Shown here piece after piece: positions 1 through 15,534 of a DNA stretch of 15,534 nt (the first letter of the stretch is position 1; the number at the start of each line of letters is the position of its first letter). The stretch is taken from NCBI GenBank assembly GCA_029068555.1, contig JAIECJ010000147.1, positions 9,410 to 24,943 on the forward strand, in the 5' to 3' direction. The position numbers were made by a program, and so were the translations under genes. The stretch is from Lachnospiraceae bacterium. Lineage in GTDB: Bacteria; Bacillota; Clostridia; Lachnospirales; Lachnospiraceae. The notes under the pieces are model-generated. The model worked only from the letters and a program-made list of their open reading frames with translations. It was not told the DNA's origin and ran no database searches.

Positions 1-437
1 ATACCAGCCTGAAAACGGTCAGGGAAAGAAAACACCTTTGGGTCATCAAAAGAGCCGATAATTTCCTTACTGGTGGCAAGTCCGCAGGTCGGGGTGCCAT
101 GACATGTGGTATAATACCCTACACGGATATCGTCAGTATAGCAGCGTCGTGCTTCCTTGACAGGGGCCAGGTCAATCATTAGTCTGTCATATCGCGGGCG
201 GACAATCTTCATGGTTCCGCGTTTTCCTGAGGTAATCTTGATGCGCACAAGTCCGGCTTCCTCGAGTTTCCCTACGTGCATGGATATTGCACCATTGGTA
301 AGACCAAGCGCTTCAGCAAGGTCATTCATGCTAAGGGAGTCATTTTCATATATCATTTCCATAATTTTCACGCGCATAGGTGTGCTTAATGCTTTAAAGA
401 CATTTTCGGCTTCGCCGACAGAACGAAAGTACAGCAT
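1..437 (-). CDS. ArsR/SmtB-like winged-helix transcriptional regulator with an extra Cys-containing C-terminal region (N-terminus complete; 3' end runs off the window)
   Basis: Not in the supplied ORF track because it is open at the window edge. Minus-strand translation from ATG at 437 gives MLYFRSVGEAENVFKALSTPMRVKIMEMIYENDSLSMNDLAEALGLTNGAISMHVGKLEEAGLVRIKITSGKRGTMKIVRPRYDRLMIDLAPVKEARRCYTDDIRVGYYTTCHGTPTCGLATSKEIIGSFDDPKVFSFPDRFQAG... with no stop. The pattern ALSxPxRxxI...L(S/N)xLAxxLGL(T/S)xxxxSxHxxxLxxAGLV is the ArsR-family HTH signature. A purine-rich RBS (GGAGAAGGGGG, minus strand, 449-459) lies upstream. Confidence 0.8.
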   Translation of the reverse strand, partial: MLYFRSVGEAENVFKALSTPMRVKIMEMIYENDSLSMNDLAEALGLTNGAISMHVGKLEEAGLVRIKITSGKRGTMKIVRPRYDRLMIDLAPVKEARRCYTDDIRVGYYTTCHGTPTCGLATSKEIIGSFDDPKVFSFPDRFQAG

Positions 438-463
438 AAGACAATCTACCCCCTTCTCCGGTC

Positions 464-483
464 ATCAATTTATAATCATTGAT
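464..483. promoter_or_regulatory. Inverted repeat ATCAAT-N8-ATTGAT in the regulator 5' leader (candidate autoregulatory operator)
   Basis: Perfect 6 bp arms at 464-469 and 478-483. It lies between the predicted -10 (506-511) and the regulator start codon (437). Confidence 0.3.
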
Positions 484-505
484 TTATTTTTAATGTATTG
501 TATTT

Positions 506-534
506 ATTATAGTGAATACTAAAACAAAAGTCAA
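506..534 (-). promoter_or_regulatory. Near-consensus sigma-A type promoter for the regulator gene
   Basis: The minus strand reads TTGACT (534-529), a 17 nt spacer, then TATAAT (511-506). This sits ~70 nt upstream of the regulator ATG at 437. Confidence 0.5.
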
Positions 535-643
535 GGATTAAATTGACAGTCCGTTGCTAGAGCGTGTTTGAAAAATCATTCCTGTCATCTATACGCTTTA
601 TTATAATATCATCTGCTCTGTTTCAGGAAACATTAAAAATAAT

Positions 644-660
644 ACGTGATAAGTACACGT
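644..660. promoter_or_regulatory. Palindrome ACGTG-N7-CACGT in the divergent intergenic region (candidate operator)
   Basis: Arms at 644-648 and 656-660 are exact reverse complements. They stand out as a GC-containing island in otherwise AT-rich DNA. Confidence 0.25.
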
Positions 661-796
661 TATAAATGGATTGTATCTCAATATAGTGATTATTATTCAT
701 AAACATAACTAAAAGAGTACACTATTTGATAAAACATTTAATTGTCGCTAAAAATATATAATGTAATACGAATATTTGCGAAAAAGGCACAAATTG

Positions 797-826
797 TTGA
801 TAGTGCACAAAATAAACGGCTAAAAT
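797..826 (+). promoter_or_regulatory. Candidate operon promoter A (TTGATA-18 nt-TAAAAT)
   Basis: -35-like TTGATA at 797-802 and -10-like TAAAAT at 821-826. It is overlapped by a direct repeat GCACAAA (787-793 and 805-811). AT-rich DNA produces many promoter-like hexamers, so this is tentative. Confidence 0.25.
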
Positions 827-911
827 TCGTCAAATAACTCAAAAGTTCTTAAAACCTTATAAAATCAAGGAATTTGTATGTTCATAGTGCCAATGTAAAT
901 GAGAAATGATA

Positions 912-940
912 TTGACTTTTTTTCTAATATAGCGTAAGTT
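912..940 (+). promoter_or_regulatory. Candidate operon promoter B (TTGACT-17 nt-TAAGTT)
   Basis: TTGACT at 912-917, a 17 nt spacer containing a T7 run, then TAAGTT at 935-940. This is ~105 nt upstream of the first operon ATG (1047). Confidence 0.25.
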
Positions 941-1046
941 AATTATATAAAGCAAAACTAAAATAATTAACTCATGAATAAAACAAACAAAGTGAAACGA
1001 AACAAAAAGGTTCAAATTGTTATGTGATCAGAAAGGTCGGGTCGTC

Positions 1047-4046
1047 ATGAAAAGAGGAAATGCAAAGAGAGTCATGGCGCTTAGCATGGCAGTATGTATG
1101 GTCGCAGCCACGGCAGTGACATCGCTTCCGACAATGCAGCTAAGGGCACAGGAATCAGAACAGACAACTCAGGGGACGGAGACAGAAAATTATTCAAATG
1201 AGAGACTGGATAACGGTTACACAAAAATCAGTGCGGGGTACACGCTTTCCGCATACACTGGGGAGCCGGTTCGCTACAAAATGAGCAATGTGTACAAATC
1301 AGGGGATGCCAGTCTGACAAGAGAGTATGGGTATGTGGGAAACGGAGAGGATGATGGCGCACTTTCCATTCCGGAGAAAGGAAAGGTGGAGCTTGAAATC
1401 GACGTGCCGCAGTCAGCAGTTTACTATATGAACTTTGACTATCTGGCAAATAGTGAGTCCATTCTTCCGGTTGAGGCAGGTATCATGGTTAATGGTGCCT
1501 ATCCGTTTTATGAGATGCGTCAGCAGAAGCTTGAGAGTCAGTGGACGGCGAAAGACAAAAAAGTGTATGACAGCTACGGCAATGAAGTTGTCAGCATGCC
1601 GGATAAGGTGTACGACTGGCAGAATAAGTATGTGCAGGATTCCACATACCGATATACACAGCCGCTTGGCATTGAGCTTCAGCAGGGGAAAAATTCCATT
1701 TCTATTGAATTAAATGAAGGTACCCTTTTGCTGGGGGACATTTGCCTGACGGCAAAGCCGCAGATACCAGAATACACAGGAAGCGAGACGGCGCCGGGCG
1801 ATGGATTTATCGAGATACAGGCGGAGGACTTTTTGTATAGAAACGATTCGGCAATCCATGCGACTTGTGAGTATGATCCGGATTTGTATCCCTATCAGGC
1901 GGGAAACAGGGTTATGAATACTGTTGATGCGACGTCTTTCGGAAAAGGTGGTCAGGAAGTGACTTACATCTTTGATGCAGAGCAGACAGGAAATTACTAT
2001 GTCGCATTTCACTACAGTCAGGGCGATAAAGCGGACTTCCCAGTATTTATGAATGTGAAGATAGATGGCAGTATTCCGAATACAGCCTTTGAAAATCATG
2101 CGTTTGCATATGAGAAAAAATATGAAATGTACACAATGGTTGACGGGGACGGAAACAGAATCAGCGTGCCGCTTGAGGCAGGCAGACATACGATTTCCAT
2201 GCAGATTAGCATGGAGCCGGTCCGAGAGTCCCTTGAGACCATTGAGAAAATTATGGGAAAGGTCAATGACCTGTCACTTGAGGTCACAAAGGTTGCTGGC
2301 ACAAACAAAGACAAATTCAGGGACTTCTCCCTGGAGGAATATATTCCGGGAATCGGCGAAACCATGACAGGGTGGGCGGATGAGTTGAATCAGGTCATGG
2401 AAAACGCAAGGGTGTATAATCCAAAGAAAAACAAGATAGCAGCATATGCCTCTATCAAGATTGCGGAGAACCAGCTGCGGAGTCTGGCAAAGAAGCCAGA
2501 TGAACTGATTTACAGAATCGACGAGCTTGCAACAAGCACCTCCTCTGTAAACCAGCATCTTGCCAACCTTATAGACAGTCTTAACGGCAATGATTTCGCG
2601 CTTGACAGTATTTATCTGTATCAGGAAAATGCTGCAAAGCAGCTTCCGAAGAACAAGAATATATTTGTGAAGGTATGGCTTGGCATTGTGCGGTTTTTTA
2701 CTTCCTTTGGCGAGCAGGCATACTCCTCGACAAATACCAATCCGGAGCATTTGCAGGTTTCGGTAAACCGTTCCAGACAGCACCTTGAGATTATGCAGCT
2801 TCTGATTAATGAGCAGTTTACACCGCAGACGGGAATAGAGGTAGACCTTTCTCTGATGCCGGATCAGACAAAGCTGGTGCTTGCCAATGCGTCAGGGGAT
2901 TCGCCGGACGTGGCAACAGGGGTCAATTACTCCATTCCGTTTGAGCTTGGTATCAGGGGGGCGTTGAAAGATCTGACGGAATTTGATGATTTTGCAGAGA
3001 TTGCGGAGCGTTACAATGCAGGACTTATTATGCCATATGTTATTGGTGACCGAATCTATGCGCTTCCGGAGACAATGAATTTCCAGGTGATGTTTTACAG
3101 GAAAGATATCCTTGACAAACTAGGACTTGAGGTTCCGGATACACTCGAGGATGTGCAGGCAATGCTCCCTGACTTGCAGATGAGAGGACTGAATTTTTAC
3201 TACCCGACGGCAAGGACGGTGGGTATGAAGACGTTTCTCGACACGACGCCGATTTTGTTCCAGAGCGGAGGAAATCTGTATGATGGTACGGTTGACCAGG
3301 CGGTGTTAACCAGCGAGGAGAATGTGGAAGGCTTTACAACAATGACAAACTTGTTTACCATATACAATCTTCCAAAGGATGTGCCAAACTTCTACCAGCA
3401 TTTTAGAAACGGGGATTATCCGATTGGTATTTCTGACTTTGGAAATTACAACATGATTTCGAATGCGGCTCCTGAGATTGACGGTTCATGGGGGGTGGCG
3501 CTGATTCCGGGTGTAAAGGATGAAAACGGAGAAGTGATGCGTTATTCATCGGCGGGCGCTGAGTCGACATTTCTGTTTGAATCTACACCTGAGCGGGAAC
3601 AGCAGGCATGGGAGTTTGTGAAGTGGTGGTCAAGTGCACAAGTGCAGGCTGAATTCGGACAGCGGCTTCAGATTACATATGGTGATGAATACTATTGGAA
3701 TACTGCAAATGCGGAGGCGTTTGCACAGCTTCCGTGGGACAGCGACGACAAAGAAGTTATTTTGGAGCAGCTTGAGTGGACGCTGGAGGCTCCGAGAGCG
3801 TTGGCAAGCTATATGGTGGAGCGTGAGCTTTCCGACGCATACAATCTTGTGGTGCTTGGAGCAAAGAGCGCTTCTGTGCGTGAGTCGCTTGATGATGCGC
3901 AGAAGAGTGTGAAGCGTGAGACCCAGAGAAAGCTTGAGGAATTTGGCTATATTGAGAATGGTGTGATGGTTGAGGAATATGAAGTGCCGACTGTCGAGAA
4001 AGTGCGTGAGATTATAGCCAATTCAAAATCGAAGGGGGTGAAATAG
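1047..4046 (+). CDS. Giant (~999 aa) secreted solute-binding protein: signal peptide, two tandem CBM6/35-like beta-sandwich modules, a helical linker, and a family-1 ABC sugar SBP domain
   Basis: ORF 1017-4046. I prefer the ATG at 1047 (MKRGNAKRVMALSMAVCMVAATAVTSLPTMQLRAQE is a positive N-region plus hydrophobic core) with AAAGG ~11 nt upstream. Module 2 opens with the CBM6/35-like 'FIEIQAEDF' and contains 'GQEVTYIFDAEQTGNYYVAFHYSQG'. Module 1 has the analogous 'GKVELEIDVPQSAVYYMNFDY'. The C-terminal ~400 aa (PDVATGVNYSIPFELGIRGALKDL...YALPETMNFQVMFYRKDILDKLGLEVPDTLEDV...WEFVKWW) reads as an extracellular solute-binding protein. Its stop codon directly abuts the ATG of a permease gene. Confidence 0.8.
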   Translation: MKRGNAKRVMALSMAVCMVAATAVTSLPTMQLRAQESEQTTQGTETENYSNERLDNGYTKISAGYTLSAYTGEPVRYKMSNVYKSGDASLTREYGYVGNGEDDGALSIPEKGKVELEIDVPQSAVYYMNFDYLANSESILPVEAGIMVNGAYPFYEMRQQKLESQWTAKDKKVYDSYGNEVVSMPDKVYDWQNKYVQDSTYRYTQPLGIELQQGKNSISIELNEGTLLLGDICLTAKPQIPEYTGSETAPGDGFIEIQAEDFLYRNDSAIHATCEYDPDLYPYQAGNRVMNTVDATSFGKGGQEVTYIFDAEQTGNYYVAFHYSQGDKADFPVFMNVKIDGSIPNTAFENHAFAYEKKYEMYTMVDGDGNRISVPLEAGRHTISMQISMEPVRESLETIEKIMGKVNDLSLEVTKVAGTNKDKFRDFSLEEYIPGIGETMTGWADELNQVMENARVYNPKKNKIAAYASIKIAENQLRSLAKKPDELIYRIDELATSTSSVNQHLANLIDSLNGNDFALDSIYLYQENAAKQLPKNKNIFVKVWLGIVRFFTSFGEQAYSSTNTNPEHLQVSVNRSRQHLEIMQLLINEQFTPQTGIEVDLSLMPDQTKLVLANASGDSPDVATGVNYSIPFELGIRGALKDLTEFDDFAEIAERYNAGLIMPYVIGDRIYALPETMNFQVMFYRKDILDKLGLEVPDTLEDVQAMLPDLQMRGLNFYYPTARTVGMKTFLDTTPILFQSGGNLYDGTVDQAVLTSEENVEGFTTMTNLFTIYNLPKDVPNFYQHFRNGDYPIGISDFGNYNMISNAAPEIDGSWGVALIPGVKDENGEVMRYSSAGAESTFLFESTPEREQQAWEFVKWWSSAQVQAEFGQRLQITYGDEYYWNTANAEAFAQLPWDSDDKEVILEQLEWTLEAPRALASYMVERELSDAYNLVVLGAKSASVRESLDDAQKSVKRETQRKLEEFGYIENGVMVEEYEVPTVEKVREIIANSKSKGVK

Positions 4047-4958
4047 ATGGCAGTCAAAAAAACCAAGGCTGCTCAGCGCGAGCATGCCAACAAGGCGGCG
4101 TATGCGTTTCTGGCTCCGTATGTAATCCTGTTTACCATCTTTATCATTATTCCAATGATGGTGGCAATAGCGCTTTCCTTTACAAGCTATGACACGATAC
4201 AGGCGCCTACTTTCAAAGGGTTTCTGAACTACATAAACCTGCTGACGGCGGATGATATTTTCATGCAGAAGGTATTGCCGAACACAATTATCTATGCGGT
4301 GATTGTAGGGCCTGGCGGATATGTCTTGTCGTTTCTGGTTGCATGGCTTCTGGCGCAGCTAAGCTCGGTTCCGAGAACAATACTGACAGTCATCTTTTAT
4401 TCACCGAGTATGACTGGAGCGGTGTCTATGACGGTGCTCTGGAAGATTATTTTCTCCGGTGACCAGATGGGGTACCTGAACAGTTTTCTGATGCGCCTGG
4501 GCGTTATCGACGCGCCGATTATCTGGCTGGTGGACGCCAGATACCTGCTTCCGATTATTATTATCGTAGCGCTGTGGTCGAGCATGGGCGTTGGATTCCT
4601 TGCGATGCTTGCCGGCATTCTGAATGCGGACGAGGAAATCTATGAGGCGGCAGCGATTGACGGTGTGAAGAACCGTTTTCAGGAGATGATTTATATCACG
4701 ATACCAACCATGAAACCGCAGATGCTTTTCGGTGCAGTTATGGCTATCGTGGGCGCTTTCCAGAACGGTGCAATCGGTGTCCAGCTTGCAGGAACAAACC
4801 CGACGCCAAATTATGCGGGGCAGCTGATTGTCAACCATATTGAAGATTATGGTTTCCTGAGATACGAGATGGGTTATGCCGCTGCAGTTTCTGTTGTGCT
4901 GCTTCTGATGGTGTTTGCATTCTCGAAGTTCTTCGGGCGGCTGTTTCGAGAAGATTAA
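4047..4958 (+). CDS. Carbohydrate ABC transporter permease (MalF/CUT1-type), importer 1
   Basis: 303 aa with multiple hydrophobic spans. The N-terminal '[21 protein letters not shown]' is typical of sugar permeases. EAA loop: '[29 protein letters not shown]'. GGGGGTG RBS upstream, and the ATG immediately follows the upstream TAG. Confidence 0.9.
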
Positions 4959-4970
4959 GGGAGGTGCGAT

Positions 4971-5843
4971 ATGGCTGGATATAAAGGAAGTAATATCAAT
5001 CCCAAGAAGTTTGAGATTGGTCAGTTAAAAATAGTACTGGTACTTTTGCCGCTTGCGGTTTTTATGGGGATTCCCATTGTGTTCATTGTCTGCCATGCGT
5101 TTAAACCGATGGATGAGTTGTTTGCGTTCCCACCGCAGATTATCGTACACAGGCCGACACTCGACAATTTTGTTAAATTGTTTAAGGCTTCGGCAAACAG
5201 CAATATTCCCATGAGCCGTTATGTGTTTAATAGTCTGATTGTGACAGGCTGCGTTGTTCTGTTGTCAATCCTGTTTTCCACGATGGCGGGATTTGCGCTG
5301 TCAAAGCTCCGTTTCAAGGGAAAGTATGCATTGCTTGAGGTGAACAATACTGCGTTGATGTTTGTGTCGGTGGCGGTTATGATTCCGAGATATCTTGTAA
5401 TTGATGCGCTTGGTATGAAGGATACATATTTTGCACATATTCTGCCGCTTCTCGCCATGCCTGTAGGACTGTTTCTGGTAAAACAGTTCATCGACCAGAT
5501 ACCAGATGCGCTGCTTGATGCGGCGTACATGGATGGAGCGTCGGATTTCAAGATTTATCGTTCGATTATTCTGCCGCTTGTGAAGCCGGCAATAGCGACG
5601 ACGGCGATTCTTGCTTTCCAGCAGGTCTGGGTAAATGTTGAGAGCTCAAATTTTTATATTAATGACGAGAGTATGAAGACGCTGGCATTTTATCTGAATA
5701 CACTGGCGAACCAGAATAGCAATGTGGCAGGGCAGGGAATTCAGGCTGCCGGTATTCTGATACAGTTTATACCGAATCTTGCAATTTTCTTAATCCTCCG
5801 GAAGAGCTTTATGAACACAATGGCTCATTCAGGCATCAAATAG
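4971..5843 (+). CDS. Carbohydrate ABC transporter permease (MalG/CUT1-type), importer 1
   Basis: 290 aa with multiple TM spans. EAA loop: 'LLDAAYMDGASDFKIYRSIILPLVKPAI'. GGGAGGTG RBS lies 6 nt upstream of the ATG. Confidence 0.9.
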   Translation: MAGYKGSNINPKKFEIGQLKIVLVLLPLAVFMGIPIVFIVCHAFKPMDELFAFPPQIIVHRPTLDNFVKLFKASANSNIPMSRYVFNSLIVTGCVVLLSILFSTMAGFALSKLRFKGKYALLEVNNTALMFVSVAVMIPRYLVIDALGMKDTYFAHILPLLAMPVGLFLVKQFIDQIPDALLDAAYMDGASDFKIYRSIILPLVKPAIATTAILAFQQVWVNVESSNFYINDESMKTLAFYLNTLANQNSNVAGQGIQAAGILIQFIPNLAIFLILRKSFMNTMAHSGIK

Positions 5844-5860
5844 CGGAAAGGAGGTGCGAA

Positions 5861-7894: not shown

Positions 7895-7901
7895 AGTTGA
7901 T

Positions 7902-10217
7902 ATGAAGAAAACAGGCAAGGGCCTTATAAAATTTGGCATAGCTGTGCTGGCCATTATCGTTATTGTGGCAGTTGCAGTGGCGGCTTCCAAGTCCGGTGGG
8001 AAGGACAGCCTGAATGTCAGTGAGCTTCAAACGGCAGTGAATGCACCTGAGGCTGCACTGAGCGATGGCGCTGTGGATACGTCCAGACAGCTTGACGGAC
8101 ATCATCTGGTGGCGGCAAATGATACCTACGAGCTTTATCTGTATGAACCTGCACTTTCCATTATTGTTAAAAATATAAAGACAGGTGCGGTGATGGAGTC
8201 CACTGTCCGTGACGAGGAGCGTCTTGGAAATGTCAATGAGACATGGAAAGGATTTTTACAGTCGGGAATTGTTGTGGAGCTTCAGGAGGAGACCAACACT
8301 ATGCAGAAGAAGCTGGGACTAGAGGGAAGCGGTGCACAAGTCAATGTTGAACTGATTCCTGGCGGATTCCGTGCAAAGGTAGATTATCCGACGCAGGAGC
8401 TTGGGTTTGAAACCGAGGTGAAGCTCTATGACGACGGAAGTATCACAGCATGTATTCCTGAGCGTTCTATCTATGAGCACGCAGATAACAAAAAGATTGG
8501 TAACATTTATGTGTTTCCGCTTCTTGGAAACTCAAGGCTTGGTGAGAAAGACGGGTACATGTTTGTGCCGGATGGAAACGGCGCACTGATTTATCTGGAC
8601 GACAAGGAAGGACGGTTTGATTCTGGATATGTTCAGAAGGTGTATGGCTCTGACATTGGCGTCGGAGAGTCCTATGTGCTTTCTCTTTTGTGGGGGCGCT
8701 ACGAGACACACAATGATGCGGAGATGATTCTGGCGCCGGTTTACGGCATGGTTCACACAGGAGATGAGATGGGATATCTTGCCGTTATCGAGAGCGGTGA
8801 TGAGGAGGCTTCCATCTATGCGACACCCAACGGTGCATATTCCGATTACAACTGGATTACGGCAGCATTCCGGAAGTGCACGACCTATATCCAGCCGACA
8901 TCTAATTCAGGCGGTTCTGTTACAAAAGTAACTGACAGGATAAAATACGACATTAATGTCAGGTATATGTTTGTCGACGGTGAGGATGCAGACTACACAG
9001 GACTGGCAAAACGCTACAGGGAGTATCTCCTGGAAAAGGATGAGCTGGTCAGGGTGGAGGACAGTTTTAAGGTGCGGCTTGACTTCCTTGGGCTGGATGT
9101 CGAAAACTGGATGCTGTGGAAAAAGGATGTGCCGGTGACGACTGTAGACAATATCAGGGAAATGTATGCAGACTTGGAAAAAGAGGGTGTCACAGATATT
9201 CTTTCTTTGTACAAAGGATGGCAGGATGGCGGCATTTATGACTTGCCTGTGACCACATATGATGTGGCGGGCGGCATAGGCGGCGCAGGTGACTTGTCGA
9301 AGCTCATGGACGAATGTGAGCAGAAAAATATTGATTTTTACCTATTTACAGACGGTGTGCGTGCAAACACCGAGACTGGAAACACAACATTTGACACGGT
9401 TAAGAAGATGGATAAACGTCTCTACACACAGAATACATACCAGAATGTGTATCGTGAGTTTGTGTACTGGACACCGCAGAAAACACTTGAAAATTTAAAC
9501 ACACTTCAGAAGAATCTCGCAAAAAAGGGTGTCAATAAGATCGCATTGTCAGTAATTGGGAATACGCTGTTTACCTACACGATGGGTGATACGATGCAGA
9601 CCCGCGGCGTCTCAAAATACCTGTACGAAGAAGCGCTGAGACAGACAAGTGAGAATATGGATCTAATGCTGGAAGCGCCGGTTGAATGCTATTGGCAGTA
9701 TGCAAAAGCGATTGTGGATATGCCGATTGACGACTCCGATTATATTTACACAGACCAAAGCGTACCGTTTTTGTCGATTGTATTAAAGGGAATCCTTCCG
9801 ATGTATGGCGACTATGTGAATTTTGAGGCAAATGAGAGGGAGTATTTCTTAAAACTGGTGGAGACAGGAATCTATCCATCGTTTTATCTGACATATGAGA
9901 ATCCGTCTGAACTGATTTATACCAATTCAAGCCATGTGTATACTTCACAGTACACAGTGTACCGTGAACAGATACTGCGTTATTACAATGAGCTGCGGCA
10001 GATTAGTGAGCTTACGAAAAACAGTATGATTGATGAACATGAAATAACTGACACAGGTGTCATAATTGTAACCTATGATAATGGTGTAAAGCTGTATATC
10101 AATTATTCTGACGCAGAGCTGAAGGCAGATGACGTGACAGTTCCCGCACTTTCATATGTGGCTCGTGTAAATAATGAATTGACAGGCATAGCAGGAATGG
10201 GGGTGGATGAAGGATGA
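7902..10217 (+). CDS. N-terminally membrane-anchored extracytoplasmic protein, DUF5696-like; putative uncharacterised glycoside-hydrolase-like enzyme
   Basis: The ORF track opens at TTG 7884, which has GAGAGGTGG ~10 nt upstream and would overlap the upstream gene by 11 nt. The first ATG is at 7902 (MKKTGKGLIKFGIAVLAIIVIVAVAVAAS, a signal anchor), so the start is ambiguous between these two. The body shows beta-rich N-terminal and C-terminal parts flanking alternating beta/alpha segments (RLDFLGLD, ILSLYKGWQDGG, IDFYLFTDG, KIALSVIGN, LMLEAPVE, VDMPIDDSDY). The family name is from memory of similar ~800 aa proteins next to sugar ABC genes and needs an HMM check. Confidence 0.65.
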   Translation: MKKTGKGLIKFGIAVLAIIVIVAVAVAASKSGGKDSLNVSELQTAVNAPEAALSDGAVDTSRQLDGHHLVAANDTYELYLYEPALSIIVKNIKTGAVMESTVRDEERLGNVNETWKGFLQSGIVVELQEETNTMQKKLGLEGSGAQVNVELIPGGFRAKVDYPTQELGFETEVKLYDDGSITACIPERSIYEHADNKKIGNIYVFPLLGNSRLGEKDGYMFVPDGNGALIYLDDKEGRFDSGYVQKVYGSDIGVGESYVLSLLWGRYETHNDAEMILAPVYGMVHTGDEMGYLAVIESGDEEASIYATPNGAYSDYNWITAAFRKCTTYIQPTSNSGGSVTKVTDRIKYDINVRYMFVDGEDADYTGLAKRYREYLLEKDELVRVEDSFKVRLDFLGLDVENWMLWKKDVPVTTVDNIREMYADLEKEGVTDILSLYKGWQDGGIYDLPVTTYDVAGGIGGAGDLSKLMDECEQKNIDFYLFTDGVRANTETGNTTFDTVKKMDKRLYTQNTYQNVYREFVYWTPQKTLENLNTLQKNLAKKGVNKIALSVIGNTLFTYTMGDTMQTRGVSKYLYEEALRQTSENMDLMLEAPVECYWQYAKAIVDMPIDDSDYIYTDQSVPFLSIVLKGILPMYGDYVNFEANEREYFLKLVETGIYPSFYLTYENPSELIYTNSSHVYTSQYTVYREQILRYYNELRQISELTKNSMIDEHEITDTGVIIVTYDNGVKLYINYSDAELKADDVTVPALSYVARVNNELTGIAGMGVDEG

Positions 10218-11236
10218 AGGGCAGCAGAAAAATAAAACCCGGACAGCTTGAGCGCCGGGAGAATGCGATTGGTTATCTTTTCATATTGCCATGGCTTATC
10301 GGAATCCTGGTGCTGGTGCTGTGGCCGATGGTGCAGTCCTTTGGGTATTCGCTCAATAAGATAAGGCTCTTGCCGCAGGGTATGGCAAAGCTCTATGTCG
10401 GATTTGAGAATTATAGTCAGATATTCCTAAAGGATCCGGATTTCATTATGGGACTGGAATCGTATCTGCTGGAGACATTGATTGCCGTTCCGGTTATTGT
10501 GGCATTTTCACTGATTATAGCGATGCTGTTGAATCAGAAAATTTCCTGCAGAGGAATTTTTCGAATGGTATTCTTCCTTCCGATTATCATCGCCAGCGGA
10601 CCAGTCATGCAGCAGCTGGCCGACCAGGAGGCGGCGAGCATTCCAATGATGAATGTGACGATGATAGAGCAGCTTTTGGATGAGTATCTTCCGCATGTGC
10701 TGGCAGTGAGTCTCACAAGCGTATTTAGTAATATGATTACGCTGCTATGGTACTCCGGCGTACAGATTTTGATTTTCCTTGCGGCGTTGCAGAAGATTGA
10801 TACTTCGCTTTATGAGGCGGCAAAGATGGATGGCGGTTCCAAGTGGGAATGCTTCTGGAAGATTACACTGCCGACCGTCAAGCCGATGATTCTGCTGAAT
10901 GTTGTCTACACAGTAATCTTTATGTCAAATAATGAGCAGAATGCGTTGATTGTACTGATTTATGACACGATGCTTTCCGCCACGGGCGGTTACGGATATG
11001 CTTCCGCGATGGCATGGCTGTATTCTGTCATCGAGTCGGCAATTGTTATTTTCTTTGCGGTCCTGATTATGGGACGCAAGGACGTGTACGAGAGACGTGC
11101 AAAGAAGTACCAGCGTGAGCTGAGGAAACAAAAACGCCTTGAGAAGAAGATTAGAAAGAGGGGTGAGCGAAATGAGCGAAACTACGCAAAGCAAAAAGAG
11201 AAGCGGCAGCGAAAGCATTCTAAAAAGAGTGCTTAG
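10214..11236 (+). CDS. Carbohydrate ABC transporter permease (MalF-type), importer 2, with an unusual ~48 aa Lys/Arg-rich C-terminal tail
   Basis: 340 aa. The ATG overlaps the upstream TGA (ATGA at 10214-10217), with a GGGGGTGGATGAAGG RBS. N-terminus: 'IGYLFILPWLIGILVLVLWPM'. EAA loop: 'SLYEAAKMDGGSKWECFWKITLPTVKPMI'. Tail: YERRAKKYQRELRKQKRLEKKIRKRGERNERNYAKQKEKRQRKHSKKSA. Confidence 0.9.
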   Translation: MKGSRKIKPGQLERRENAIGYLFILPWLIGILVLVLWPMVQSFGYSLNKIRLLPQGMAKLYVGFENYSQIFLKDPDFIMGLESYLLETLIAVPVIVAFSLIIAMLLNQKISCRGIFRMVFFLPIIIASGPVMQQLADQEAASIPMMNVTMIEQLLDEYLPHVLAVSLTSVFSNMITLLWYSGVQILIFLAALQKIDTSLYEAAKMDGGSKWECFWKITLPTVKPMILLNVVYTVIFMSNNEQNALIVLIYDTMLSATGGYGYASAMAWLYSVIESAIVIFFAVLIMGRKDVYERRAKKYQRELRKQKRLEKKIRKRGERNERNYAKQKEKRQRKHSKKSA

Positions 11237-12197
11237 TTCCGAGGGCAGGGAACAGATAAAGTACAAGGTCAGAAAATTTATATTTGGTTCCAAGGATACA
11301 GAGGGTGCAGGTAAGCTTGCCGTAATCTATCTGCTGCTAATCAGCATTGGGTTTGTCTATCTCTATCCGGTTCTGTATATGATCAGCAAGAGCTTTATGA
11401 ACCTCAATGATTTGCTCGACACCTCGATTAACTGGATTCCAAGCCAGCTGTATCTTGAAAATTACAAACAGGCATTTCAGTCCATGGACTACTGGAAGAC
11501 GTTTCGCGATTCTGTCGTGATTGCGGGATTTCCGACATTGATAAACGTTGTTATTTGCGCCATTGTCGGATATGGATTTGCGCGCTATGAGTTCAAGGGG
11601 AAGAAGCTATGTATCGGACTGCTTCTGTTTTCTTTCATCCTGCCGCCGCAGGCAACAATGATGCCTACCTATGTGTTTTATACAGATATCGGATTAATCA
11701 ATTCGATTATGGCGTTTATCATCCCGGCGCTGCTTGGACAGGGACTGAAATCGCAGATATTTATCCTGATTTTCTTTAACTTTTTCCGTCAGATACCGAA
11801 GGTACTGATAGAGGCGGCAAAGATAGACGGGGCAGGACATTTTAAGATTTTCCGCAAAATTGCGCTGCCCTCCGCGGCTCCCGCGATTCTGGTTGTGTTC
11901 CTGTTCTCAATTGTATGGTACTGGAATGAGTCATATCTGACGCAGCTCTATGTCGTTGGCGCGTTTACAAGCAATGCGGACGCGTATCACTGGAGTTCGC
12001 TGATTGTATCGCTCAAGAATTTTGAAAATAGTTACAATACTGCAAGAAGTGTCGCCGGAAGCGGAATGGTTGACATTAACGAGTCGATTAAGATGGCTGG
12101 GACGATGCTCAGTATATTACCACTGCTGATTATGTATCTGGTACTTCAGAAGCAGTTTGTTGAGAGCGTGGACAGAACCGGAATCACCGGGGAATAA
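11172..12197 (+). CDS. Carbohydrate ABC transporter permease (MalG-type), importer 2
   Basis: The ORF is open from 11139. I prefer ATG 11172 (MSETTQSKKRSGS...), which has a GAGGGGTG RBS ~6 nt upstream. This gives a 65 nt overlap with the upstream gene. An alternative GTG at 11229 has no RBS. EAA loop: 'LIEAAKIDGAGHFKIFRKIALPSAAPAI'; multiple TM spans. Confidence 0.85.
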   Translation: MSETTQSKKRSGSESILKRVLSSEGREQIKYKVRKFIFGSKDTEGAGKLAVIYLLLISIGFVYLYPVLYMISKSFMNLNDLLDTSINWIPSQLYLENYKQAFQSMDYWKTFRDSVVIAGFPTLINVVICAIVGYGFARYEFKGKKLCIGLLLFSFILPPQATMMPTYVFYTDIGLINSIMAFIIPALLGQGLKSQIFILIFFNFFRQIPKVLIEAAKIDGAGHFKIFRKIALPSAAPAILVVFLFSIVWYWNESYLTQLYVVGAFTSNADAYHWSSLIVSLKNFENSYNTARSVAGSGMVDINESIKMAGTMLSILPLLIMYLVLQKQFVESVDRTGITGE

Positions 12198-12213
12198 AAA
12201 CGAACCGTTTTTT
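12196..12213 (+). other. Small hairpin AAAACG-AAC-CGTTTT followed by a T run, between permease and SBP genes (weak attenuator or mRNA-processing/stability element?)
   Basis: A 6 bp stem with a 3 nt loop, then TTTT, starting at the TAA of the permease gene. The stem is short and AT-rich, so it is probably leaky at best. Confidence 0.2.
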
Positions 12214-12258
12214 GGCAAGGTAATTTTTAAATTATATATTAATAAGGAGGAATGAAAC

Positions 12259-13869
12259 ATGAAAAAGAAAATGGTAAGCTTTATGATGACTGCGGCTTTG
12301 GCGGCTGGTCTGCTTAGTGGGTGCGGTGGAGGTTCCGGCTCGGCTCCGGCGACTGACAGCGCCAGCACTGGAACAAATGCAGGTGCGAATACGGATGCAA
12401 ATGCAAGTTCAGGGGATACGGCAGGTGACACGGCTGCGGCTGGGGAGCTTCCGGCGATGACTACGGATGAGATTACACTGACTTATATGCATTTTGACAA
12501 TGAGCAGCTTGTAAACAGGGTGGCGGAAGCATTTATGGATAAGTACCCGAATATCAAAGTGGAAGCACAGGCGTTTTCCACGGACGGATATAATGACACT
12601 CTTCTGAATCTTGTTCAGTCCGGTCAGACGCCTGACTGCTTTATGATTCTGGGTAACTGTGATTTCGCGCTCTCCAATGCGCTGCTTGGCGATATGACAC
12701 CGTACTGGGAGGCTGACCCTGAGAATCAGAATATCCTTCCTTCCATCAACAGTGCGAGGCTTGGTTATTATGGAACAGACAAGAAGCTTGCGACACCGAT
12801 TAAGTTTTTTCCGGATGCAATTTACTGTGATTTGAATGTGTTTGAGACCTTGAATATTGAAGCGCCATCTACAAACTGGACATGGGACGAGATGATCAAT
12901 ACGTTTAAGGCTGCGACCAATACGGACGCAGGAACCTATGGGTTTAACCAGTTCCACTCCGTTGTCACATATTATCCGATTTCCAACGGCAACAATCTGA
13001 TAGGAGAGTTTGGATGGGATGGCAAGGCATATCATATGGATCAGTGGGCAGCAGGTGTAAACCAGTGGGCGGAGCTTGTAAATGGAAAGTATCATGCACC
13101 GTATGGCGATACAGACGAGATGGAGGCATGGACAGGTGACAGAACGATGTGGGCGGCATACACAGGAAAACTTGGTTTCCAGATTGACGCGTGGTGGACT
13201 TATCTGAACCTGTTTGATACGCCGGACTATAGAAACCGCGGTATGGAATGGGTTCCTTACACAACACCGGCAAGCCAGAGCGGATATGTATTTGGCGTGC
13301 TTGACTTCGGCGGTATTTCTTCTTCTACAAAACATCCAAGAGAGGCGTATGAGCTTTTAAAGTGGATGGGCTGGGGCGCTGAAGGCTGGCAGACAAAGCT
13401 TGATGCTTATCAGGATGTCGAGACTTATGCGGATCTTCCGCTCTACAGACAGTCAATGCCTTGTCCGATTACGACAGATGCGGATATCTGGAAAGAGTTC
13501 CAGGAGTCCTTCTATCCGACAGCAGCCACAAGAACATTCCAGGCAGTAAATGACCCGGTAAACGGTGAAGCGCTTGTTACGGCAGACGAGGACACGAAGT
13601 ACGGCAAGTATTTTGATGATTTCTTCGCAAACTGCAAGAATCCGATACCATTTGGCGACTGTCAGATTCCGGGATTTGCTGACTTCCTTGATACATCTTA
13701 TCGTGCAGTGGGCGATACGCTGGGCGTGGAAGATCAGGTTCGCTTAGAGGGCAAAAATGCAAGTGACTTTGCGGCAGAGCTTGAACAGAAAGCTTACGAT
13801 GCAAATCAGGCAGCTTTGGCAGCAGCCAAGGAAGCATATCAGATGATTGGTATTGAACTGAATTATTAA
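12259..13869 (+). CDS. Lipoprotein extracellular solute-binding protein (family 1, large LplA-like sugar SBP), importer 2
   Basis: 536 aa with an AAGGAGG RBS at 12244-12250. Signal peptide with a canonical lipobox: MKKKMVSFMMTAALAAGLLSG/C. This is followed by a ~45 aa Gly/Ser/Thr/Ala/Asp low-complexity tether, then an SBP-like body (ITLTYMHFDNEQ...YPNIKVE...EAYELLKWMGWG). Confidence 0.85.
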   Translation: MKKKMVSFMMTAALAAGLLSGCGGGSGSAPATDSASTGTNAGANTDANASSGDTAGDTAAAGELPAMTTDEITLTYMHFDNEQLVNRVAEAFMDKYPNIKVEAQAFSTDGYNDTLLNLVQSGQTPDCFMILGNCDFALSNALLGDMTPYWEADPENQNILPSINSARLGYYGTDKKLATPIKFFPDAIYCDLNVFETLNIEAPSTNWTWDEMINTFKAATNTDAGTYGFNQFHSVVTYYPISNGNNLIGEFGWDGKAYHMDQWAAGVNQWAELVNGKYHAPYGDTDEMEAWTGDRTMWAAYTGKLGFQIDAWWTYLNLFDTPDYRNRGMEWVPYTTPASQSGYVFGVLDFGGISSSTKHPREAYELLKWMGWGAEGWQTKLDAYQDVETYADLPLYRQSMPCPITTDADIWKEFQESFYPTAATRTFQAVNDPVNGEALVTADEDTKYGKYFDDFFANCKNPIPFGDCQIPGFADFLDTSYRAVGDTLGVEDQVRLEGKNASDFAAELEQKAYDANQAALAAAKEAYQMIGIELNY

Positions 13870-13916
13870 TATGTGCATAATATAACAAAGCATTTTACCG
13901 GATAATAAAATAATGA

Positions 13917-13952
13917 AAAGGAGGGCATTATTTGAAATGCTCTCCTTTTTTC
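13917..13952 (+). terminator. Rho-independent terminator ending the eight-gene operon
   Basis: AAAGGAGGGCAT (13917-13928), loop TATTTGAA, then ATGCTCTCCTTT (13937-13948). This is a 12 bp stem with one G-U pair, followed by TTTT. It lies 48 nt after the SBP stop codon. Confidence 0.75.
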
Positions 13953-13978: not shown

Positions 13979-15534
13979 ATGATAAAAAAAGTAGCGGCAG
14001 GAATGCTTGTGACTGCCCTTTTGACGGGAATGCTCGGCGGCTGTGAAAACGGCAGGACAGATTCTGCAGGCAGTGAGGCGCCTGTGCAGGAAAGCACTGT
14101 GTCAGAAGTGCATACAGATGAAAGTAATGCAACGGGCGAGAATCATACACAAAATATGCAGCCAGACAAAACGGCGCAGGAAGAGGAGGAAACAGAAATG
14201 ACAGAAGTGTCATTTAATCGTGTGAGTGTGCATGACCCTTCAGTCCGATATGATAACGGAACCTACTACATTTTTGGTTCTCATATGGCTTGGGCGAAAA
14301 GCACAGATTTGAGAAACTGGGAAACCTTTCAGACGAACATCAATGCAGACTATGCAAGTCTGTTTGGAAAGGAGTGGGAGGCGTACTGCAGGACGGCAAC
14401 AAATCCAGACCTGAACGGAAACCTGTGGGCGCCGGATGTCATTTATAATCCGAACATGGATAAGTATTGTTTTTATATGAGCGTAAATGGCAATGACTGG
14501 AATTCGGTGATTGTTCTGCTCACTGCGGACAGCATAGAGGGACCATATGAGTACGCGGGACCAGTGGTGTACTCGGGTTTTAATACGGACTCGCATGATG
14601 TCAGGCTCACGGATGTATATCAGGTGCTCGGGGAAGATGCAGACCTTGCCAGATATCAGAATATCAAAAACACCAAGCTCAATGCAATCGATCCATGCGT
14701 CCTTTTCGACAGGGATGGATCGCTCTGGATGGTATTTGGCTCCTGGTTTGGCGGCTTGTACATGCTCAGGCTCGACGAGAACACAGGGCTTCGCGACTAT
14801 ACGACAACATATGAAACGATACCGAACGCGCAGGATGCGTATTATGGCTATAAGGTGCATGGCGGGTTTGGTGTGTCTGGGGAGGGACCTTATATTATAG
14901 AAAAAGACGGATACTATTATCTGTTTGTCTCTTACGGCGGACTTGTGGCGGACGGCGGCTATCAGATTCGCATATTCCGTTCGAAAAATATTATGGGACC
15001 TTACGTGGACGAGGCGGGAAACAGCGCAGTCTACACAAAGGAGTGCAATGATCTATTTGAAAAGGTAGGCGTCCGCATCATGGGTTCCTATGACTGGACA
15101 GGAAATCGTGAAATCCGTGTGGCGCAGGGACACAATTCTGCGTGTGTGACAGAGGACGGTGAAATTTTCATGATATACCACTCACGGTTTGCCGGCGGCA
15201 AAAATGGTGTTTCGGAGGCACATGAGGTACGCGTGCAGCAGCTCTTTGTCAATGAAGACGGCTGGCTTGTCGCAGCGCCTTACGAATACGCAGGTGAGAA
15301 AATCAGCAGGACAGGATATGCTGTCGAGGAGATGTGTGGTGATTACGAATGGATAGTGCATATGCCGACAACATATTATCAAAAAGCTGGAAGCAAGACG
15401 TTGGGAGTCATGCAGCCGTCAAAAATAACATTGAATGCGGATGGAACGGTTTCAGGCGAACTTACAGGAAAGTGGACGTATGAAGACGGAACGCCCAATA
15501 TGACAATCACAGTTGACGGTGTGACATATAAAGG
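13979..15534 (+). CDS. Glycoside hydrolase family 43 lipoprotein (arabinanase/arabinofuranosidase/xylosidase-type five-bladed propeller plus start of a C-terminal beta-sandwich); 3' end runs off the window
   Basis: Not in the ORF track because it is open at the window edge. The ATG at 13979 is preceded by AGGAGGA (13966-13972). The frame stays open to 15534. Signal and lipobox: MIKKVAAGMLVTALLTGMLGG/C. An acidic low-complexity tether follows. GH43 hallmark motifs are 'VHDPSVRYDNGTYYIFGSH' (catalytic base Asp), 'LWAPDVIYN', 'NAIDPCVLFDRDGSLWMVFGSW' (pKa-modulating Asp), 'GEGPYIIEKDGYYYLFVSYG' (catalytic acid Glu) and 'AQGHNS'. Confidence 0.85.
   Translation, partial: MIKKVAAGMLVTALLTGMLGGCENGRTDSAGSEAPVQESTVSEVHTDESNATGENHTQNMQPDKTAQEEEETEMTEVSFNRVSVHDPSVRYDNGTYYIFGSHMAWAKSTDLRNWETFQTNINADYASLFGKEWEAYCRTATNPDLNGNLWAPDVIYNPNMDKYCFYMSVNGNDWNSVIVLLTADSIEGPYEYAGPVVYSGFNTDSHDVRLTDVYQVLGEDADLARYQNIKNTKLNAIDPCVLFDRDGSLWMVFGSWFGGLYMLRLDENTGLRDYTTTYETIPNAQDAYYGYKVHGGFGVSGEGPYIIEKDGYYYLFVSYGGLVADGGYQIRIFRSKNIMGPYVDEAGNSAVYTKECNDLFEKVGVRIMGSYDWTGNREIRVAQGHNSACVTEDGEIFMIYHSRFAGGKNGVSEAHEVRVQQLFVNEDGWLVAAPYEYAGEKISRTGYAVEEMCGDYEWIVHMPTTYYQKAGSKTLGVMQPSKITLNADGTVSGELTGKWTYEDGTPNMTITVDGVTYK

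Follow-up and report, generated by a model that had tools for sequence, protein, structure and literature searches.

In the usual view, carbohydrate-binding modules (CBMs) are found on enzymes, and the solute-binding proteins (SBPs) of ATP-binding cassette (ABC) importers see small oligosaccharides only. How Gram-positive gut bacteria hold a polysaccharide and import it is much less understood than the starch utilization system (Sus) of the Bacteroidota. Here we describe a 15,534 nucleotide (nt) stretch of DNA from a Lachnospiraceae bacterium (GenBank assembly GCA_029068555.1, contig JAIECJ010000147.1, positions 9,410 to 24,943 of the forward strand), referred to as the window, that encodes an SBP of unusual size, hereafter the giant SBP. 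It ends in a CUT1-type SBP domain, preceded by two modules that are predicted to have a CBM35/6-like fold. On balance, we slightly favor the view that the giant SBP provides substrate binding for importer 1, the first in a pair of CUT1-type ABC importers in a Gram-positive polysaccharide utilization locus (gpPUL), and that its CBM-like arm serves glycan capture or docking.

The closest described relatives of the C-terminal part are CUT1 SBPs such as Lin1841 (PDB entry 5ysb), AbnE of Geobacillus (6rjy) and the MalE-type proteins. Like these, the giant SBP has a complete SBP domain, which makes up its C-terminal ~430 amino acids (aa), and is encoded next to MalF/MalG permeases. Unlike these, it is twice the usual length, with a structured N-terminal unit of 530 aa, and it is not a lipoprotein, whereas the second SBP of the operon is. 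For the N-terminal unit, the closest systems are the CBM35 and CBM6 modules of enzymes (5x7g/3wnk, 2w1w, 2vzp and the agarase 2cdo). The jelly rolls match lone CBM35s with template modeling scores (TM-scores) of 0.72-0.74, and the profile matches have E-values of 1e-7 to 1e-2. In contrast to the CBM35 and CBM6 of enzymes, the modules of the giant SBP are located on the binding protein of a transporter, are arranged in tandem, include a 125 aa helical insertion in module 2 and score below the Pfam thresholds. The likeness to SusD and SusE/F is a functional analogy only. The shared role that we propose is to hold a polysaccharide at the surface and feed an importer; there is no relation in sequence or fold, the importer is an ABC system and not the TonB-dependent SusC, and capture and delivery would be combined in one polypeptide.

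At the level of the locus, the passages on arabinan, glycoside hydrolase family 51 (GH51) and gpPULs in Sheridan et al. 2016 (PMC5320581) describe Firmicute loci without Sus homologues, and list ArsR-type regulators and double ABC systems for the gpPULs of Roseburia and Eubacterium rectale. Like these gpPULs, the window locus combines sugar uptake by ABC transport and transcriptional control with degrading enzymes, namely a glycoside hydrolase of family 43 (GH43) and the predicted GH129-like DUF5696 protein. With its GH43, two ABC systems and a divergent helix-turn-helix (HTH) regulator, it corresponds to the published gpPUL definition. Unlike the gpPULs of those passages, it contains a core of a CBM-bearing SBP, an NHL/Yip1 protein and a DUF5696 protein, which is not described there. 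Literature searches for DUF5696, PF18952, Yip1 with SBP, CBM35 with SBP, and multidomain SBPs with CBM returned neither the giant SBP nor its gene cassette, and no paper on DUF5696. We thus found no description in the searchable literature of an SBP with CBM-like modules, of the split module presented below or of the cassette.

Domain architecture of the giant solute-binding protein

The gene starts with the ATG at 1047, just preceded by GAAAGG, and stops at 4046, giving a protein of 999 aa. The TTG at 1017 is merely the mechanical first start in the list of open reading frames (ORFs), and the ATG is the likelier one. A sequence-only reading, made by a model from the letters of the window and its ORF translations, had described a giant SBP of ~1000 aa; this agrees with our analysis, in which the SBP domain accounts for the last ~430 aa only. 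The translated protein contains every motif quoted in that reading, namely IEIQAEDF, TGNYYVAFHYSQG and the helical stretches.

Pfam SBP_bac_1 and SBP_bac_8 match aa 582-872 only, with E-values of ~5e-21 and 76 bits compared to gathering cut-offs of 26-27, and nearly the entire profile is covered. The same domain was found in all 40 of 40 diverse members of the family. A search of the PDB sequences with the whole protein gave 38 sugar-binding proteins, all matching inside aa ~575-960, with the sophoro-oligosaccharide binder Lin1841 of Listeria (5ysb) at the top (8e-13). As the Pfam and PDB matches are confined to the C-terminal part, we place the start of the SBP domain near aa 568 (nt ~2748), very close to the ~2750 that had been read from the sequence, and the assignment of the C-terminal domain to SBP_bac_1/SBP_bac_8 is clear. 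The SBP domain is also the best conserved part of the protein, with a mean identity to the window protein of 44%, compared to 26-31% for the N-terminal modules. By all sequence and context tests the giant SBP belongs to the CUT1 SBP family; that it binds and delivers sugar is predicted.

The N-terminal ~570 aa gave no above-threshold match in Pfam, NCBIfam or the PDB sequences, with the searches against Pfam and NCBIfam done both for the whole part and for three pieces of it. Weak, sub-threshold matches were obtained to CBM_35, PPC, GH115_C and Golvesin_C, and chance-level matches to DpnI_C and Bromodomain. An AlphaFold (AF2) model of aa 36-580, built on an alignment of 38 homologues at 42-86% identity, has a mean predicted local distance difference test score (pLDDT) of 81 and a predicted TM-score (pTM) of 0.80. 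It contains two beta-jelly-roll modules. Beta-sandwich modules had been proposed at roughly nt 1200-1760 and 1800-2220, and the model confirms both with slightly shifted borders (Table 1). The pLDDT of module 1 is mostly 84-96, falling to 66-77 at model residues 131-150. Module 2 starts with IEIQAEDF and includes GNYYVAFHYSQGDKADFPVF and LEAGRHTISMQ. It should be noted that the description of IEIQAEDF and TGNYYVAFHYSQG as CBM6/35-style is a label of the sequence-only reading; in the giant SBP family the EAE opening recurs, as do the G.Y...Y and G.H motifs, and EAE at the start of module 2 is the majority consensus in an alignment of 35 family sequences.

A Foldseek search of the PDB with the N-terminal model gave 97 matches at E <= 0.001. 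These are led by CBM35-bearing enzymes (5x7o, CITase 3wnp/3wnk, Xyn30D 4qaw and PaMan26 3zm8), all with a probability of 1.00. The isolated CBM35s 2w1w (TM-score 0.74) and 2vzp (0.72), and CBM6E (8j3x), are also among the matches. A profile of module 2, made from 35 family sequences, matched the CBM35 of CITase, cycloisomaltooligosaccharide glucanotransferase (5x7g, 1.1e-7), the CBM35 of 3wnl (1e-6), the Clostridium thermocellum CBM35 (2w1w, 5e-5) and the CsxA CBM35 (2vzp, 6e-4), as well as an agarase CBM6 at 0.013. Pfam CBM_35 is matched by 9 of the 40 diverse members (best E-value 6.4e-6), and one homologue (P0294) has a precomputed CBM_35 annotation, whereas the window protein itself stays below the cut-off. 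Together, the Foldseek matches, the profile and the nine members support the earlier view of two CBM-like modules and assign them to the CBM6/35 type. We call the modules CBM35/6-like, and not CBM35, because the window protein is under the Pfam threshold and binding is only predicted; homology was found by modeled fold and by profile, and carbohydrate binding is putative.

The two modules are homologous to each other by profile-profile comparison (hhalign probability 99.1%, E-value 6e-19), with an insertion of ~23 aa in module 1 relative to module 2. This comparison indicates that a divergent CBM35/6-type jelly roll was duplicated in tandem.

Module 2 is followed by four helices of 28, 22, 18 and 23 residues (model residues 355-382, 401-422, 430-447 and 456-478; pLDDT ~66-92). 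The sole strand after these helices in the model, FALDSIYLY, must pair with one of the beta modules, as there is no other sheet. We joined aa 248-388 to aa 511-532, thereby removing the helices, and aligned the product with module 1. The alignment crosses the splice, with EGTLLLGDICLTAKP pairing with GNDFALDSIYLYQEN, and the number of aligned columns rises from 89 to 104 and the score from 112 to 118. In this alignment FALDSIYLY falls on LLLGDICLT, the last strand of module 1. When distant members were spliced in the same way, module 2 could be aligned to Pfam CBM_6 past the splice, as far as profile position 121-123 of 125, and the top match had an E-value of 5.3e-6 and 27.2 bits, the cut-off being 28.9. 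Because the strand after the helices aligns both to the last strand of module 1 and to the end of the CBM_6 profile, we place the insertion, modeled as a four-helix bundle of ~125 aa, inside module 2, in the loop that leads to its last strand. How the helices pack and how the strand pairs was derived from secondary-structure output and alignments.

This revises the sequence-only reading, in which the region was a long helical spacer with heptad-like repeats. The four helices are 18-28 residues long, the Gly/Pro loops between them are conserved, and the chain then returns to module 2 with a strand; a continuous coiled-coil spacer is ruled out by this model. The top conserved motif of the whole N-terminal part, TKVAGTNKDKFRDF..YIPG, lies within the insertion. 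Among 40 diverse members at 26-55% identity, G418, D422, R425 and P434 are nearly invariant, and D520 in the returning strand is also among the most conserved N-terminal residues. An amphipathic helix with a conserved RF..SF motif then links the N-terminal unit to the SBP domain.

The giant SBP begins with a Sec-type export signal, as had been noted from the sequence, with one hydrophobic segment at aa 9-27. The observation that it lacks a lipobox also held. In MAVC, the residue at -1 to the Cys is V, and homologues of 78-83% identity have S, G or A in place of the Cys. In the c-region, an A at -1 ahead of an acidic or polar residue is kept in the homologues (LRA/QE, VYA/DE and SGA/EE), which fits processing by signal peptidase I. 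Among 129 full-length representatives of the family, only ~10 have a lipobox-like motif, and many have either a signal of the signal peptidase I type or a long hydrophobic N-terminus with no obvious cleavage site. As MAVC lacks a proper residue at -1, its Cys is unconserved and a lipobox is rare in the family, we conclude that the giant SBP is not a lipoprotein. The lipoprotein signal of Gram-positive SBPs is usual, and not defining, for membership in CUT1.

Conservation of the architecture

We found 819 full-length homologues in a collection clustered at 90% identity. The best 120 of these are 78-100% identical to the window protein and mostly ~990-1010 aa long, with a few shorter, likely fragmentary sequences, and belong to Lachnospiraceae where named. 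A search with the N-terminal half alone gave 1323 clusters (50% identity), and for 172 of these the E-value was 1e-30 or lower. In the best 150 of the 1323 clusters, complete proteins have lengths of ~920-1040 aa and match at aa ~60-580, the shorter matches look like fragments at contig ends, and no other fusion partner of the N-terminal unit is apparent. Database labels for these proteins are limited to 'extracellular solute-binding protein', 'hypothetical' and 'DUF5696'.

When one genome per species was scanned, relatives were found in at least 406 species genomes, mostly Lachnospiraceae. The taxa named for 80 of the 406 loci include Roseburia, Acetatifactor, Eisenbergiella, Fusicatenibacter, Anaerocolumna and Robinsoniella, and further carriers among these loci are the isolates Anaerosporobacter mobilis DSM 15930 and Falcatimonas sp. 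MSJ-15, as well as Oscillospiraceae and metagenome-assembled genomes (MAGs) of other Clostridia. Comparison of the orthologues showed that the N-terminal modules are kept throughout the family, despite their faster evolution. These comparisons indicate that the architecture is old and fixed.

One copy (L059, SHOH01000035.1) comes from a genome binned as Anaerolineaceae. Its gene order and its GH51, GH43 and regulator genes are like those of Clostridiales MAG loci such as L046, and the copy may reflect mis-binning or horizontal transfer.

Two MAG contigs carry broken versions. In L006 (9893-12352) the ORF of the giant SBP ends at 819 aa and unrelated genes come next. In L015 (35-2299) the N-terminal half is joined to the second SBP, followed by GH43, and the middle of the cassette is missing. 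These loci may be real deletions or assembly chimeras.

Neighboring genes and likely substrate

The features of the window are listed in Table 1. In brief, all genes from 1047 to 13869 lie on the plus strand, each abutting or overlapping the next, and a strong hairpin closes the series. The cassette comprises eight genes, in the order giant SBP, two permeases, NHL/Yip1 protein, DUF5696 protein, two permeases and second SBP.

Table 1. Features of the 15,534 nt window; slashes in the signal peptide follow position -1.
Feature	Position	Strand	Evidence and remarks
HTH_5 (ArsR-type) regulator, N-terminal 145 aa of ~309	3..437	-	Divergent; cut by window start
Divergent intergenic/promoter region, AT-rich	438..1046		GC 0.36
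Giant solute-binding protein gene	1047..4046	+	999 aa; ORF list, Pfam, PDB and homologue searches
Signal peptide, aa 1-35	1047..1151	+	n-region MKRGNAKR, ~20 aa h-region, c-region PTMQLRA/QE; no lipobox
CBM35/6-like beta-jelly-roll module 1, aa ~73-235 (predicted)	1263..1751	+	AF2 strands, model residues 40-200
CBM35/6-like module 2, main part, aa ~252-387 (predicted)	1800..2207	+	AF2, Foldseek, family profile
Helical insertion, aa ~390-513 (predicted)	2214..2585	+	DSSP on AF2 model; four helices
Last beta strand of module 2, returning after the insertion, aa 517-525, FALDSIYLY (predicted)	2595..2621	+	Model residues 482-490
Amphipathic linker helix, aa 539-555, IFVKVWLGIVRFFTSF (predicted)	2661..2711	+	AF2 model residues 504-520, pLDDT 66-76
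CUT1-type solute-binding domain, aa ~568-999	2748..4046	+	Pfam; solved sugar SBPs
Permease 1 (MalF/UgpA type)	4047..4958	+	Start abuts giant SBP stop
Permease 2 (MalG/UgpE type)	4971..5843	+	Family scans
NHL/TPR/Yip1 membrane protein, 677 aa	5861..7894	+	Pfam NHL, TPR, Yip1
DUF5696 protein, 771 aa	7902..10217	+	Pfam DUF5696 1e-164; N-terminal transmembrane anchor
Permease 3 (MalF/UgpA type)	10214..11236	+	Start overlaps DUF5696 stop; 26% identical to permease 1
Permease 4 (MalG/UgpE type)	11229..12197	+	Start GTG 11229 or ATG 11172; 25% identical to permease 2
Second SBP, 536 aa lipoprotein, LSGC lipobox	12259..13869	+	Pfam SBP_bac_1
Terminator-like hairpin and U run	13915..13950	+	RNA fold -20.1 kcal/mol, z = -5.3; operon end
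GH43 endo-1,5-alpha-L-arabinanase-like lipoprotein with GH43_C	13979..15534	+	Pfam; cut by window end

A tblastn survey of 83 related loci showed that this gene order is kept down to ~45% identity in every locus with enough DNA except the broken loci L006 and L015. The second SBP is next in order wherever the DNA of the locus extends far enough, and the gene calls in three further contexts agree. The NHL/Yip1 protein is always encoded between the first permease pair and DUF5696. It is laid out as a signal peptide, an extracellular NHL beta-propeller, TPR, one transmembrane helix and a C-terminal Yip1 domain with five transmembrane helices.

The two permease pairs are mutually 24-26% identical, and the two SBPs cannot be aligned by BLASTP. 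As judged from these values, the cassette holds two old, distinct importers, and a recent duplication of one transporter is ruled out. The best PDB match of the second SBP is 22hh, an uncharacterized family-1 SBP (6e-18), followed by the arabino-oligosaccharide binder AbnE (6rjy, 3e-8). The tail of permease 3 contains a long, highly basic Lys/Arg-rich stretch (…RRAKKYQRELRKQKRLEKKIRKRGERNERNYAKQKEKRQRKHSKKSA) that overlaps the uncertain start of permease 4.

The DUF5696 protein gave no match in the PDB, either as a single sequence or as a profile of 48 sequences. A model of aa 40-771, made by AF2 from 48 sequences, has a pLDDT of 84 and a pTM of 0.88. In Foldseek this model matches GH129 enzymes over its whole length, with ZgGH129 (5opq) at an E-value of 1.4e-31 (TM-scores 0.65/0.72) and NagBb (5wzn) at a TM-score of 0.75, followed by GH101, GH31 and GH36. 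The DUF5696 protein is thus like GH129 and GH101 (5opq, 5wzn and the pneumococcal GH101) in its whole-length fold, with E-values of 1e-31 to 1e-26 and TM-scores of 0.65-0.75. It is unlike these enzymes in having no detectable sequence similarity to them and in being membrane-anchored. DUF5696 has invariant acidic residues, namely D185, D355, D445 and E615 in the numbering of the modeled 732 aa construct. Based on the model, we predict that DUF5696 is a membrane-anchored, extracellular, glycosidase-like protein with a GH129/GH101-like fold.

The gene directly after the operon terminator encodes the GH43 protein, the GH43_C domain of which is lipocalin-like. Its PDB matches include 4kca (4.5e-104), Abn2/YxiA and AbnA. 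In 66 related loci, the DNA upstream of the cassette extends over at least 3 kb. GH43 is encoded within 10 kb upstream in 32 of these and GH51 in 15. In Anaeromicropila populeti the cassette is located between three GH43 genes, a regulator and two GH51 arabinofuranosidase genes. Given the flanking GH43 and GH51 enzymes and the resemblance of the second SBP to AbnE, our best guess is that the substrates are arabinose-containing plant glycans, possibly arabinan or related pectic or hemicellulosic side chains.

The regulator gene, divergent from the giant SBP, has a homologue upstream of the cassette in 43 of the same 66 loci. A tblastn search with the regulator of a related locus (L001) gave 95% identity over aa 1-145, and the protein matches cytoplasmic, HTH-type Pfam families only. 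The plus-strand ORF at 157-522 runs antisense to the regulator and was rejected as a gene. In close relatives, DNA conservation covers positions 1-544 and 701-1100. The promoter-like sites in the intergenic region are consensus matches only, and the window contains no Rfam family. An 18 nt direct repeat, AAAAAGG(C/T)(A/T)CAAATTGTT, is present at 781-798 and 1004-1021, the second copy just upstream of the start codon of the giant SBP. The repeat could be an operator of the HTH regulator, or could be due to chance.

Possible function of the N-terminal unit

We suggest the following working model. Sec would export the giant SBP, with its two jelly rolls, the helical bundle in the second of these, the amphipathic helix and the sugar SBP domain. 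The N-terminal unit would either hold a plant glycan chain at the cell surface or dock, via the conserved helical insertion, on membrane-anchored partners, for which the GH129-like DUF5696 and the NHL-propeller/Yip1 protein are candidates. The SBP domain would then bind a released oligosaccharide and pass it to the permease pair at 4047-5843, with ATP hydrolysis by a shared MsmK/MsmX-type ATPase encoded elsewhere. Docking of the SBP on permeases 1 and 2 would follow from the identity of the domain and from their fixed adjacency. What the analysis itself supports is the domain layout, the homology of the two modules, the insertion, the conserved architecture and cassette, the missing lipobox and the modeled fold of DUF5696. 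That the modules bind glycan, that a hand-off takes place, which substrate is used and that the giant SBP assembles with its partners is proposed here.

Several observations weigh against this model, above all against glycan capture. The CBM_35 score of the window protein is 12.8-14.8 bits (E-value 0.04-0.15) against a cut-off of 28, and is still 12.6 bits for module 2 with the helices spliced out. The profile alignments of module 2 to solved CBM35s span core strands only (positions 47-139), and not the calcium- or ligand-binding residues. The N-terminal modules evolve faster than the SBP domain, and the strongest conservation in the N-terminal part is in the helical insertion and not in the jelly rolls, which suits a protein-protein interface as well as glycan binding. 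The insertion occupies the last apical loop of module 2. In CBM6 and CBM35 this canonical apical loop contributes to the usual binding site, and the insertion may alter this site or obstruct it. The cleavable signal of the giant SBP, together with the missing lipid anchor, leaves its retention at the cell unaccounted for. The window contains no ATPase gene; CUT1 systems of Firmicutes usually share an MsmK/MsmX-type ATPase encoded elsewhere. The GH43 and GH51 neighbors are frequent and not universal. Finally, the literature searches gave no report of binding or transport for any family member, nor one on the cassette.

Several of these points also speak for a second explanation, in which the N-terminal unit is a structural or docking arm and not a carbohydrate binder. 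The arm would tie the unanchored SBP to the NHL/Yip1 protein, DUF5696 or the permeases, or set its distance in the cell wall, and the SBP domain would remain a classical binding protein. We consider this possible, although rather unlikely. The lack of a lipobox and the probably cleavable signal call for non-covalent retention, which such an arm would provide. The conserved loop of the helical insertion, its position in the apical loop of module 2 and the sub-threshold CBM_35 score point the same way, and two membrane-anchored extracellular proteins always co-occur with the giant SBP in the cassette. CBM6/35-like jelly rolls are also known in non-lectin roles, and YknW, a Yip1-domain protein, is an accessory of a Bacillus subtilis ABC transporter. 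On the other side, the modules are by sequence and fold nearest to true CBM35s of glycan-active enzymes, the EAE motif at the start of module 2 is in the family consensus, and the locus is devoted to glycan breakdown.

Going further than our working model, we tentatively consider that the cassette encodes an undescribed surface machine, an extension that we regard as doubtful. In such a machine the giant SBP, DUF5696 and the NHL/TPR/Yip1 protein would be arranged around two ABC translocators, and would bind a plant glycan, cleave it at the membrane and pass two classes of products directly into the cell. It would be an ABC-based counterpart of the Sus 'utilisome', with capture and delivery fused in one protein and the helical insertion serving to dock it.

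A role of the giant SBP as a sensor, in which glycan binding is relayed to the regulator or to a membrane protein and switches the locus on, is very improbable in our view. The HTH regulator, with a C-terminal domain of ~200 aa, is a conserved divergent neighbor, the cassette has a second, ordinary SBP, and SBPs that activate sensors exist, as described in PMC11113362. Against these points, the Pfam matches of the regulator are cytoplasmic and HTH-type only, and the conserved cassette includes no histidine kinase, chemoreceptor or anti-sigma factor. The gene of the giant SBP directly adjoins a permease pair of its own, and the two SBPs of the cassette are matched by two full pairs of permeases. 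Within the protein, constraint is strongest on the SBP domain, and the adjacent permeases are conserved similarly or more. The sequence-only reading had offered a sensor or scaffold as its alternative; with permeases adjoining in every genome and no kinase or chemoreceptor in the cassette the sensor is unlikely, and the scaffold is still alive as the docking arm.

That the long ORF is a mis-assembly or frameshift joining a CBM-containing gene to an ordinary SBP gene, as the broken versions on the two MAG contigs might suggest, has practically no probability left and is ruled out by conservation across the family and by the split module 2, as the same ~1000 aa layout recurs in the 819 homologues, the 1323 clusters and the at least 406 species genomes, isolates included, and the strand completing module 2 follows the helices, so that the parts cannot be separate genes.

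Returning to our favored explanation, the giant SBP family is a widely conserved group of transporter binding proteins of gut Clostridia, and its cassette probably captures and imports fragments of plant glycans. The family unites a tandem CBM35-like unit with an SBP in a single chain, which departs from the usual view of where CBMs reside, and it is present in no fewer than 406 species genomes, Lachnospiraceae and Oscillospiraceae among them. Should the modules bind glycan, the family would offer a model, concrete enough to be tested, of how butyrate-producing Firmicutes couple import to capture, and DUF5696 and the bacterial NHL-Yip1 proteins would gain a first lead to their function. Should they bind none, the family would still be an example of a CBM fold that has become a docking arm, with a domain unusually inserted in a loop. 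The interest lies mainly in that the architecture is common in gut Firmicutes and makes the coupling of surface capture to ABC import directly testable.

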